Source: Eledone cirrhosa
Lineage: Eukaryota
NCBI GenBank assembly: GCA_964016885.1
Contig: OZ024740.1
Span: 126,356,001 to 126,420,000, forward strand
DNA: 64,000 nucleotides
Reading direction: 5' to 3'
The translations under genes were made by a program, and so were the position numbers. Position 1 is the first letter of the stretch. The number at the start of each line of letters is the position of its first letter. The notes beneath the pieces were generated by a model. That model did not search any database. It was not told the DNA's origin and saw only the letters and a program-made list of their open reading frames with translations. This document shows, one piece after another, positions 35,417 to 53,111 of the stretch.

Positions 35417-36654
35417 ATAAATTCCCATTTTCCTGCAGCAAATTGCATTTGAACAGAAGCCCCCTCAATTCAATTTATATATGGACATATTGACAATCAT
35501 ATTAATCATGTATCTCCTATCTCATTAGGCATATATGTACTCTATGAGTTTTTTGGATTTATTGGATATTTTCTGTGTTTTTTTTTGTGTATTTTATATG
35601 TGTTTTTGTTTGTTTTGCTCCATATGATGGAAATACTAACTAGATACCCGCCTAATTACTACCTTTCATACTGTAATTTACCCTCCGTTCTACTGTACGG
35701 TACTATCGTTCAGTATGTAGATAATATATCTGTAACATTGATGCCCCTTTCAAAATGTCTTACTTACACATCTCCCTACGTATCAATTAGTATAGGTGCA
35801 CATATTTTTTTTTTACTCACTTCAATCTAGATTCACACTTGTAATTTTTTTAAATTTTTAAATTTTTGATTTCTGATTTTTTATTTTTTATTTTTTATTT
35901 TTTATTTTTTATTTTTAGTTTTAATTTCCAACTCTCATTCATAATTTACACTGTGAAACCATAATACCTAGAATTAAGTATATTTCCTCTTAGAGGTTGA
36001 TGGTCAATTATACTGTCCATGCGTAATGTGGGGTGGTATTGAGACCTATTGATACTCACACTCTCCCAACCCCACTAGCTTTCGGCTGACTGCCACTGAC
36101 GGGTTGGCTAGCAGTAAGCTATATATTACAGACCTGAATAGGTCATTGTTTGGTTGATAGGGAGAATTGCCTTGGCGAATTTCATTGAACTCTGCGGTAG
36201 CGGATGGTCAACTTCCTTCGGACCTGCGCCTGCGCAGACCGGTGGGGGTAAGTTGATACTCACAAGGGAACGGACGAAGAACCCAAGAGCACACACTTCG
36301 TCCGTTCCCATGTCAATTCAATTTGGATTGCCTCGGAAACTTAACCTTATTATGTAACAAGCTGCCTGACGATGTCGCAGCACTGGCGCACGGAACAGTG
36401 TGGCCACTGTCGTCATTGAAATATGTATCACTGCATTGTTATTAAAGGACTTTAACATCTGAAACTACTTCACTTTTCCATATTGGATATTTACTCCGTC
36501 ACTCCTATGTGGATAAGTACGTTGAGTGCTTGAATTGAATTGCATCAATATTTACGTTAACTATATATATATATATATATATATATATATATATATATAT
36601 ATGCATAAGGAATGTATATACTTTCAGACGTTAAACCATCTGGCAGGAAGGTAT

Positions 36655-36697
36655 ACGATGCTGACGATAGCTAATAAGCTTGAAACTAGTACATCGT
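36655..36697 (+). ncRNA. Minimal type I hammerhead ribozyme
   Basis: acgatg-CTGACGA-tagct aata agctt-GAAA-ctag-TA-catcgt. Confidence 0.88.
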
Positions 36698-37100
36698 TCC
36701 TGTGTCAGTGTTGAACAAAAAGGTGACGTGGTTGCCTAAACACTGTACCCCGTAATTCGAGCTATTTGTTTGTTTACAACCAAACAAACCGAGCATTATA
36801 ATAAATGTTCGGTAAACCGATACGTGCATATATATATGTGTGCATGTGTGTATATATATACATACTACTGTACGTCTGTATACATATATGTATGTACGTA
36901 TACATACATACATACTTACATTTAAGTAAGTGCCGTACTAAGATTCAGAAATAAAATTTCGTTTCATTCTATTCCATTTATCGTTTTCGGTGTGCCCGGC
37001 CGACTGAACTCACTCGATATGTAAATTAGGCTGCTCAGCCGTTAATATGCATATGGAAAGTATATACTTTCAGACGTTCAACCATCTGGCAGGAAGGTAT

Positions 37101-37143
37101 ACGATGCTGACGATAGCTAATAAGCTTGCAACTAGTACATCGT
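37101..37143 (+). ncRNA. Second hammerhead copy (GAAA>GCAA)
   Basis: Identical to 36655-36697 except A13C. Confidence 0.65.
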
Positions 37144-49420: not shown

Positions 49421-51819
49421 TGAATGGAGTTAGTACTTGGAAAATTCGCTATGTTACACGTGATAATAATAAAATAGATATGCAAAATTCTTCTTTAGTT
49501 CACTCTCATGAATTACTGTCTATATATATTATTATAGCTGGTTTTCAATTTTCACTGCGGAAGTGAAAGATGAAAATATTGTAATTTTATGAACAGCGCT
49601 CGCTTAGCTAATTAGTATGAGTCAAATGGCAACTACGCTGATACTGGTAAAGCAATATCTATATTGATGTGACAACAAAATTGGCGTACGTGAGCGAATG
49701 GACAATAAGAAACACAAATTAGGTGCACGCTGTTCCAACGTACGCAATGATATGTTGCAACAGCAAATAGGATATCTCTATATGGATAAATTAAATCAAG
49801 TCTATCTAAACGTTTTCGCTGAGAACTTGCACATGTACAGCAGTGAAGTTATATTAAGGTAATTAAGGGATGACTTATATAAATGTCCAATTAGTGATAC
49901 ACAGGTAAGATATAATTTCATAAAATGTATGCACGAGCGCACAGTTATATATGTATATGTATATATGAATGTTTATGTGTGTGTATATATATATATATAT
50001 ATATATATATATATATATATATATATACACCAACACAAACGTATATATATATATGTATATATATATATAAGTGTATATATATATATATATATATATATAT
50101 ATATATATATATATATATATATACATAAATATATATATATAAATATATATATATATATATATATGTGTGTGTGTGTGTGTGTGCGCGCGTATATGTGTGT
50201 AATAAGCGTGCATGTTCACTTTCATTTTCCATCGAATTTTCACAAAATTTGTCACTGAGATCTAGATCAATCCTAGAATTCGCCACGGAGAAGGCAATCC
50301 TCTGTCAGGTCTTGTTTTACAATAAAATGAAGTGGATTAAAGAAGAATAATATAGAAAGAATGAAAGCTCTCGGAGTGGGTGTGGAAAAACCATGGATTT
50401 GTGGAGGCACATGCTAAAATTTGTGTTCAATGCATTGGTATATGTGTTTTCTATTCAGATATTCATTACTGAATTAATTATAGCAACGATGAGGGGCAAT
50501 TAAGCAAATTCGACAGGCCGTATCATAAGTCATAATTTGCGATTGATTGAAAAATCGTTCGATTACAGTTCTCTTTGTTGAAAGACATAGAATGTTACTT
50601 ATAAAAACCTTTTTCATGCTTTGTTGTACGAACTTGACTTCCCAATGTGCGGCATGACTCCATTTAGGTGGTTATTGTGGGCTGTAAAGCTGAAAGACGA
50701 CGGGAGAATGTGGAGCACGGTTTATAATGTAATGGGTTCTTATTCGCGGTAGATAATAATAACTCTTCAACAGTTGTAGAGATATTCTTTTAACTACCCG
50801 TTGGCCATTTAATAATATGAATCTTCAAAATAAGAAAATTACACAGATAAATGCTACATATATCAAACTAGAATCGATTTACTATTCATCAATGTTGAAA
50901 CGTAAATAAGACCGTTATTTCTCCGATGAATCCACAAAACACTTAGCAAACACCTTAAACCGAACGCCTACCTAACTCCAGTTAAAACAGCCGGCAACCC
51001 ACCCACCACATTCGGCAAAATGAACGTAGACCGCTCACCTTCTCAAACTCGACAAACCGAACAGGATCTCAACAGACACAAAATGGGTTAGACAGAGAAA
51101 TAAGGAGAGAGAGTTATACATCTGTAGTATATATGTATTAGATATATATGATGATTTCTAGTGAAGAGTTGTTGGTGGGATCACATAGTGGGGAGGGAGC
51201 TGAGGAAGTAGATACATGCGTGCATGGTGCATTAGTGTGTGCATAAAAGAGAAAGTCGTATGTGCTGTGAGATCCATGAGTCCAATAGAGCGGATAGAAA
51301 TGAATGGGAATAAGATTCTAAGGTGTATGAGTGTGTATGAGGTATATATGTGTGAGGTGTTTTATATGCGTGTGTTGTGTTAACAAGTGTATGTATTGGT
51401 GATGTGGTTGAAGTTGTGTCTGTGTGCACGGATGAATGGATGTTACAGAAACGGAAATGAGAATTAGAGAAACTTCGCTGGTGAGTTGAGGCCATTCGTG
51501 AAATTGGTTCCAATGCGGTACAATATATATAAACATAGGTATTTGATACACGGTATTAGTTTCTTAGAATATCCTAATTATGTTACATATCACTCTCTCT
51601 CTCTCTCTCTCTCTCTCTCTCTCTCTCTCTCTCTCTCTCTCTCTCTCTCTCTCACCCGCTCTCCCTCTCACTCTCTCTCTCTCTCTCTCTCTCTCTCTCT
51701 CTCTCTCTCTCTCTCCCTCACTCTCTCTCACTCTCTCTCTCAAACACATAAGCACACACTCTTACACCTACAAACACACACATGAATGTGTATATATATA
51801 TATATAAATATATATATAT

Positions 51820-52494
51820 ATTGTTATGCTTTGGGAGGGTCATGTTGCCAATAAGAAACACACGCACCAGTTGCTTTCATTCCAATTTAATATAAATTAA
51901 ATTCATAAATTAAGACATTTATAAATTTCCGGTTCGCTTGTTGGTTCCAAAACCGGATGTATGTGCATATATTGTCAAAGTTCTTTCGTCATACATTATG
52001 TGACCTCTTCAGTGACTGGAGATTATTTTCTTTGTTTTGTGTCTCTCCTTTGTTCTGTCCTACGCCATCTTGTTTTTGTGTGTGCTGTGTGCTTAGTTTG
52101 CGCATGTGTTACAGCCGGGTGTCTGTGTGTGTTTTTATTTGTTTATTTATTTGTTTATTTACATGTTACTGGTTGGTTGTTTGTTCTATGTGTGTGTGTG
52201 TTATCATTTTGTCCTTAATTGTAAGTTGTGATCTTGCTATTTTATTCAATTTTGATGATCATACGCCCCTTGATCATTGAAACGTCCCCAGATGTGACAG
52301 CACGGAAGACCTCCTCAGTAGAATCATCGAAAATAACCGATCTAGGGACCTGACAGACTGTATAATAGGTAGCATGGATGTTGTGTCCCTATATCCATCC
52401 ATTGACGTGGATTTTGGTTTGGAGAAATGCGTAGAAATGATCAGAGACAGCAATGTTGAATTCCGTGGGATTGATACCAGTGAGCTGGGACTCC
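51820..52494 (-). mobile_element. PLE 3' end (pseudo-LTR, -) joined to an inverted PLE RT fragment (52275-52494, +)
   Basis: Terminus family of 24326-24883; RT piece CDSTEDLLSRI..IIGSMDVVSLYPSIDV. Confidence 0.78.
51974..52016 (-). ncRNA. Minimal type I hammerhead ribozyme
   Basis: gtca-CTGAAGA-ggtcaca taatg tatgac-GAAA-gaac-TT-tgac. Confidence 0.8.
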
Positions 52495-53111
52495 TACGTA
52501 CATACATATATGCATACAGACGTACAGTAGTATGTATATATATACATACATGCACACATACATATATGTACGTATGGATTTACCGAACATTTATTATAAT
52601 GCTCGGTTTGTTTGTAAATACATACTACTTATATTTAAGTAACAGCCGTACTAAGAGTGAGAAATGAAATTTCGTTTCATTTATCCCATTTAACGTTTTC
52701 GGTGCGCCTCACTCGATATGAAAATTAGGCTACTCAGCCGTTAATATGCATAAGGAAAGTATATACTTTCAGACGTTCAATCATCTGGCAGGATGGTATA
52801 CGGTGCTGACTGTAGCTAATAAGCTTGAAACTAGTACATCGTTCCTTTGTCAGTGTTTAACAAAAGGGAAACGATGGTTGCTAGACACTGCGGCTTTATA
52901 CGGGATGTTTGTTTACAAACACACCGAGCATTATAATAAATGTTCGGTAAATGCATACGTACATATATATATATATATGTGTGCATGTATGTATATATAT
53001 ACACACTACTGTACGTCTGTACACATATATGTATGTACGTATACATACTTATATTTAAGTAACAGTCGTACTAAGAGTGAGAAATGTAATTTCGTTTCAT
53101 TTTTTCCATTT
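52495..53111 (+). mobile_element. Second insertion of retrozyme-like family B: inverted arm (52495-52620) + ~420-bp unit + ~65-bp overlap; HHR decayed (52800-52842)
   Basis: Homologous to 36600-37360 but starts and ends at different points of the unit. Confidence 0.83.

Follow-up and report, generated by a model that had tools for sequence, protein, structure and literature searches.

The 64,000-nt window analyzed here (Eledone cirrhosa, contig OZ024740.1, positions 126,356,001 to 126,420,000) contains two insertions of a repeat that we call family B. Both are decayed copies of one cyclic, non-coding unit with a hammerhead motif. Its DNA features make it likely that family B is a retrozyme of the non-LTR (long terminal repeat) kind. 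With moderate confidence, we lean towards an abundant non-coding retrozyme of 423-446 nt, for which a Penelope-like reverse transcriptase (RT)/endonuclease would have nicked (TA)n DNA and primed at an internal TA of uncut multi-unit RNA. A broader claim is more tentative, and we regard it as doubtful. Under it, family B would be a very abundant retrozyme of cephalopods that has not been described before. A Penelope-like enzyme would prime at free TA sites of the unit and not at a fixed tail, and the twin-primed inversions would show the reinsertion of uncut linear multimers, not circles.

Two permuted insertions of one unit

The window has 37% GC and is rich in (TA)n tracts and retroelement fragments. 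Unit positions are counted from the predicted cut on the 446-nt unit. Locus 1 (36599..37362, plus strand) spans 764 nt, or 1.71 head-to-tail units with a period of 446. It runs from position 354 to the cut, through one full unit to the next cut, and on to position ~227 of the second following unit. The cut-to-cut unit lies at 36692..37137 (plus strand, 446 nt, 37% GC). There are (TA)n tracts on the left (36562..36602) and on the right (37360..37450). The left tract, the likely target, has ATAT in common with the unit at position 354.

Locus 2 covers 52495-53113 as a whole. Its direct part (52619..53113, plus strand) holds 1.17 units with a period of 423 and passes from position ~210 over the cut to 290. 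It is preceded by an inverted arm (52495..52618, minus strand) that corresponds to unit positions ~83-209. In unit positions, there is zero gap between the outer end of this arm and the first base of the direct part. A (TA)n tract follows on the right (53111..53192). Only locus 1 has such tracts on both sides.

A preliminary description, made from the letters of this DNA, had reported two circularly permuted insertions with periods of 446 and ~420 and a coverage of ~1.7 and ~1.15 units. The coordinates, registers, periods, and coverage hold. It had also seen the inverted arm, missing its zero gap, and it was right that both loci end in (TA)n.

The window holds three copies of the junction ctagTA|catcgt, in which the first base past the cut is 36692, 37138, or 52837. 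The end points of either locus are read through unbroken in the other, and no family boundary lies at the locus ends. Substitutions amount to 1.7-6.9% within loci (4 comparisons) and to 4.9-12.6% between loci (8 comparisons), with overlapping ranges. The GC content of the unit is 36-37%. Self-BLAST found no further family B copies in the window.

Anatomy of the hammerhead motif

The first hammerhead copy (36640..36708, plus strand) is of type I and has an intact core. It consists of CUGACGA at 36661-67, GAAA at 36682-85, and the palindrome ACUAGU, with the predicted cut after 36691. Helix I has 6 bp, followed by an internal loop and a distal stem. Helix II has 4 bp over a U.U, helix III is one pair with the palindrome, and the cut triplet is GUA. 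This copy fits the canonical metazoan type I form, described in the available passages of PMC4209133 with 6 bp in helix I, 4 bp in helix II, and 1-2 bp in helix III with a palindromic loop. It does not fit the minimal hammerhead (min-HHR) of Penelope, with 4-5 bp in helix I and 7-8 bp in helix II.

The other two copies have cores predicted to be inactive, so that only one of the three copies in the window is intact. In copy 2 (37086..37154, plus strand), GAAA is replaced by GCAA at 37128-37131. In copy 3 (52785..52853, plus strand), CUGACGA is replaced by CUGACUG at 52806-52812, and the cut site follows 52836. Given these core changes, neither locus would be able to release unit-length RNA unaided. 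We also considered whether two broken cores out of three reflect selection for templates that stay uncut. This was rejected, as the number is not significant under neutral decay (P 0.15-0.40).

A strict hammerhead descriptor matched the window once and never matched any of 100 dinucleotide shuffles. The double-hammerhead fold reaches -39.2 kcal/mol, and the cofold minimum is -39.4. The catalytic fold of the monomer lies 6.8 kcal/mol above its own minimum. Folding predicts cleavage as a dimer. Collections of viral, metagenome, and prokaryote sequences contained no match to exact hammerhead patterns. Rfam microRNA matches were discarded; they correspond to a TA/CA hairpin and lie far under the gathering scores.

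Hammerhead-like motifs are present elsewhere in the window. A head-to-head pair at 39703-40115 (97%) carries them at 39809 (minus strand) and 40009 (plus strand). Further hammerhead-like cores lie at 20135, 24635, 38993, and 52012.

Abundance and variation in sequencing runs

The permuted unit 36602-37047 was compared with four of the 23 matching sequencing runs (X1, X4, X5, and X21). X1, X4, and X5 are contigs, and X5 bears a second organism label. X21 consists of restriction-site-associated DNA (RAD) reads. The kind of run X4 is not on record, and we do not count it as RNA; the run data are contigs and DNA reads. The 23 runs include no listed RNA run, which is not taken as evidence, and small shares in organisms C-P were left aside.

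The family is abundant in these runs. The unit is matched by 6,177 contigs in X1, 91 in X4, and 44 in X5, and by 36,632 of the 12,467,656 reads in the X21 library (0.29%). Depth has its maximum on the ribozyme core in all four runs; the summed contig depth on the core in X1 (2.1 million) is not read as a copy number. The joint from the end of the permuted unit to its start (37047->36602) is found in 11 contigs of X1, two of X4, and one of X5, and in 2,284 reads of X21 with 73 starts. Reads run past the start of locus 1 in all four runs. It means that there is no unit boundary at that point.

The ribozyme contains six of the 40 variants listed of 127, and its invariant core bases are spared. 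The six affect N7, loop II, and an internal-loop base; two more change A-U to G-U, and one goes against the fold. A variant set in 36626-36675 (e.g. 36626 A>G) has 0.6% of the depth in X1 and ~44-70% in X4, X21, and X5. It suggests subfamilies of very unequal abundance between runs, and library bias is possible. The RAD molecule ends at 36757, 36955, 37024, and 37027 were rejected as element ends. They coincide with three AATT sites and are likely library cuts.

Insertion ends and the inversion at locus 2

At both loci, the RNA 3' side meets (TA)n with an overlap of TA. Three priming sites can be read, at unit positions 209, 227, and 290. They are all different, and each shares TA with its flank.

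The longest hairpin predicted in the unit spans positions 129-210 (36820..36901, plus strand). At its 3' foot, the arm (~83-209) meets the direct part, which starts at the next base, and the 3' base of this hairpin is the inversion point. Alleles of locus 2 are common to the arm and the direct part. This geometry resembles that of twin priming, a mechanism of L1 described in the available passages of PMC9148063. If so, a single template of at least 619 nt, or 1.46 units, would have been copied. Strand switches are also found in the runs. They make up five of the 15 joints listed of 47; three of the five are compatible only with a head-to-head arrangement like that of locus 2, and the other two are ambiguous.

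Such loci could also arise at the DNA level. Family B would then be a dispersed satellite, spread by unequal exchange or extrachromosomal DNA circles, and locus 2 would have been inverted later by chance. DNA circles also yield head-to-tail units with part-unit ends, and no target-site duplication (TSD) is readable inside (TA)n. Nevertheless, the conserved ribozyme core would be left unexplained, as would the polarity of the ends, whose RNA 3' side faces (TA)n. The same applies to an inversion placed exactly at the insertion edge and to the related strand switches at other loci. We consider this origin very improbable.

Linear multimers or circles as template

In the mechanism that we favor, tandem source loci would be transcribed into multi-unit RNA. 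A Penelope-like RT/GIY-YIG protein would nick (TA)n DNA, and target-primed reverse transcription would start at an internal TA of the uncut RNA, so that more than one unit is copied. The 5' side of the copy would be truncated or inverted, at locus 2 by twin priming. RNA with two intact hammerheads would self-cleave into monomers, which may circularize. The insertions themselves would need no circle. A precedent exists for part of this scheme: the purified Penelope-like RT of the anole nicks both strands of AT-rich DNA, initiates at internal positions, and uses mainly uncleaved RNA (PMC11167929).

The published model offers another template for the same retrozyme. This is a monomeric circular RNA copied for more than one lap, which seems to us rather unlikely here. 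Several observations at locus 1 agree with it. The locus crosses two cut sites, one of them intact. At polymorphic sites, its two units have the same allele, for example A at 36658 (26% of X1 depth) or G at 36819 (33%). They differ at five near-fixed sites, and these changes are private to one copy (copy a). However, equal sharing of alleles is also expected from a homogeneous tandem array.

The unit is predicted to be structured, with a z of -4.9 as a linear molecule. It also folds well as a circle (z -3.9 for the unit of locus 1 in the permuted register and -6.9 for locus 2). The minus strand folds equally well (z -4.3, against -3.9 for the plus strand). So, folding by itself is no proof of a functional circle. 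According to the available passages of PMC7229834, the retrozymes of coral, mussel, and axolotl make circles. On the other hand, uncleaved RNA was the dominant substrate of the Penelope enzyme in vitro (PMC11167929).

The inversion at locus 2 speaks for a linear uncut multimer. On a monomer circle, the cDNA of the first lap would already cover positions 83-209. The stretch needed by the second primer would be paired with it, and no RNA would be left for priming. The arm nevertheless meets the direct part exactly. The argument presumes that Penelope-like RTs lack RNase H.

Some points weigh against the mechanism that we prefer. Regarding the template, locus 1 is as compatible with a circle as with a multimer. 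The case against the monomer circle comes from one locus and an assumed RT trait, and a dimeric circle would fit as well. No array of at least two full units was seen. Regarding the ribozyme, Rfam gave no hammerhead at the gathering score nor among 71 matches at E<=10, so the call rests on the descriptor, the folding, and the variant pattern. The usual G10.1-C11.1 pair is missing from helix II and has U.U in its place. At 36658, the allele most frequent in X1 (A>T, 62% of the summed depth) would put a U.U in helix I, and the variants listed contain no compensating change. Regarding the helper, the unit does not resemble the Penelope ends found in the window, and these therefore identify none. 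Finally, insertions with visible ends number only two loci. The run comparison skipped 36827-36931 as a repeat and discarded junctions at (TA)n for the same reason.

The preliminary description read the family as a retrozyme with a circular RNA template. The retrozyme part stands, with its non-coding cyclic hammerhead unit. The differing registers are also real. However, they do not require a circle, as internal priming with 5' truncation on an uncut tandem transcript gives the same result. Such transcripts had been named there as an alternative, and only the preference for the circle goes too far. Since the DNA itself has this junction three times, the proposed reads or divergent RT-PCR products across it would be no proof of circles. 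A circular RNA of family B is a possible product. As the template, a circle is unproven and somewhat disfavored.

Coding content and Penelope-type neighbors

The unit shows no conserved open reading frame (ORF) and no protein relative, and there is no tRNA gene in the window. The absence of an ORF from both loci, as first described, is correct for the repeat. It overlooks a Penelope-type RT fragment that adjoins the arm of locus 2 (52293..52496, plus strand) and has TA in common with it. This fragment has 75% identity to residues 303-370 of the Octopus vulgaris protein P0001. It has 11 protein relatives (54-78% identity), nine of them labelled Octopus vulgaris. These labels make an octopod host likely.

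This neighbor raises another explanation, in which family B is the pseudo-LTR (pLTR) region of a coding Penelope-like element with tandem hammerhead units and both loci are its truncated ends. The three priming sites also lie within 81 of the 446 nt, a zone like a Penelope tail, although this clustering is not significant (P 0.10-0.16). In addition, the available text of bioRxiv 10.64898/2026.07.22.740005 presents Xenopus retrozymes as sisters of pLTRs. Against this, the RT fragment is a piece from the middle of the ORF and stands tail-to-tail with the arm, unlike a pLTR-ORF junction. A 114-codon frame through the locus 2 hammerhead was rejected as coding; it is stopped in both copies of locus 1 and has no protein relative. 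The hammerhead is canonical and not a min-HHR.

The runs bear on this explanation too. By eye, 21 of the 24 loose ends listed are variant family sequence, and none is a recurrent ORF end, although the 24 are only a part of 441. The share of contigs passing into unlike sequence is 0 in X1, 0.03 in X4, and 0.01 in X5, a weak indication with contigs this short. No pLTR relative of family B was found in the window. Taken as a pLTR, family B would be quite an unlikely case.

The control was a tail with links to the same coding family of Penelope type. It occurs at eight places. Five have the same end base beside (TA)n, and the remaining three share one longer extension. Thus, the priming sites of family B differ in three of three cases, compared with fixed ends at eight of eight places for the neighboring tail, in a small sample. 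Penelope-type ends with a fixed 3' tail lie at 20514-21731, 24284-24925, 24997, 25555, 31961, 44288, and 51822. They show two end positions, as in the published Penelope tail. An endonuclease fragment at 20754-20978 belongs to this family of ends and is related to P0001.

Locus 2 is part of a larger block (51822-53113) within (TA)n bounds. The block consists of a Penelope-type end (minus strand), the RT fragment (plus), the arm (minus), and the direct part of family B (plus); these pieces are not separated by any long TA tract. It could represent either nested insertions or a single composite event joining helper and retrozyme sequence.

Other elements were noted in the window. A short family with long perfect inverted arms occurs at 25029-25283, 53193-53309, and 53527-53698, and starts right past the (TA)n tract of locus 2. 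A non-LTR retrotransposon at 60028-62552 has AP-endonuclease and RT frames with a frameshift between them. A sigma-70 scan of the window stayed at chance level and is irrelevant for animal DNA.

Comparison with known systems

Penelope-like elements share several traits with family B. In the available passages of PMC11167929 (PAc of Anolis) and PMC8557442, they insert at AT-rich or (TA)n targets, have internal 3' ends and truncated 5' ends, and carry an inverted 5' piece and a hammerhead. The part of PMC8557442 available describes both the inversion of 5' copies and the (TA)n targets as Penelope hallmarks. Unlike these elements, family B has no ORF, and its hammerhead is canonical and not minimal. 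It has three differing priming sites in place of one or two fixed ones, and its arm meets the direct start and does not repeat the 3' tail. The anole element uses fixed start sites without target homology (PMC11167929), whereas the ends of family B overlap by TA.

As in L1 twin priming, the outer end of the inverted 5' segment meets the start of the direct segment (available passages of PMC9148063). In contrast to L1, family B lacks a poly(A) tail and any L1/APE features, and its template is cyclic. Plant LTR retrozymes carry type III hammerheads in their LTRs and a 4-bp TSD. Family B differs from them in its type I hammerhead, the absence of an LTR pair, and the absence of a readable TSD.

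In our literature search, we found neither a retrozyme of cephalopods nor junctions of this kind described; it covered mostly open-access texts, and the supplements of PMC7229834 or of the preprint may list one. The words "ribozyme" and "retrozyme" never occur in the main text of the O. vulgaris repeat paper. The giant squid paper reports 235 hammerhead-1 matches, which are only counted.

The vertebrate retrozymes of Li, Clavereau & Pollet (bioRxiv 10.64898/2026.07.22.740005) are also tandem type I hammerhead units, mostly with few repeats, and likewise co-occur with Penelope-like elements. The available text covers 35 genomes with no mollusc among them, and insertion junctions are absent from it. 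Their "active" loci have two consecutive units with complete hammerheads. Neither locus of family B has this structure, which concerns the loci and not the family.

The animal non-LTR retrozymes in the available passages of PMC7229834 are the closest match. They are non-coding head-to-tail units of 150-450 bp, with GC <50% and a canonical type I hammerhead, found together with Penelope-like elements. Axolotl HHR_Amex1 has a helix III like that of family B, with one pair and a palindromic tetraloop, and its cleavage as a dimer is likewise predicted. HHR_Amex2 shares the basal U.U of helix II. Compared with these retrozymes, the family B unit lies at the top of the size range. It forms dispersed insertions of 1.2-1.7 units with 5' inversions and is described here from DNA.

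As a kind, family B is not surprising, since the retrozyme class is already known. In the available parts of PMC7229834 and of the preprint, a Penelope helper is proposed, and so is the circular template. An abundant family with inversions and variable ends makes helper and template testable from an assembly. If the broader claim on free-TA priming and linear multimers is true, copies of family B would give the first genomic read-out of animal retrozyme movement. Cephalopods are not among the hosts named in those passages of PMC7229834, and family B would extend retrozymes to them.

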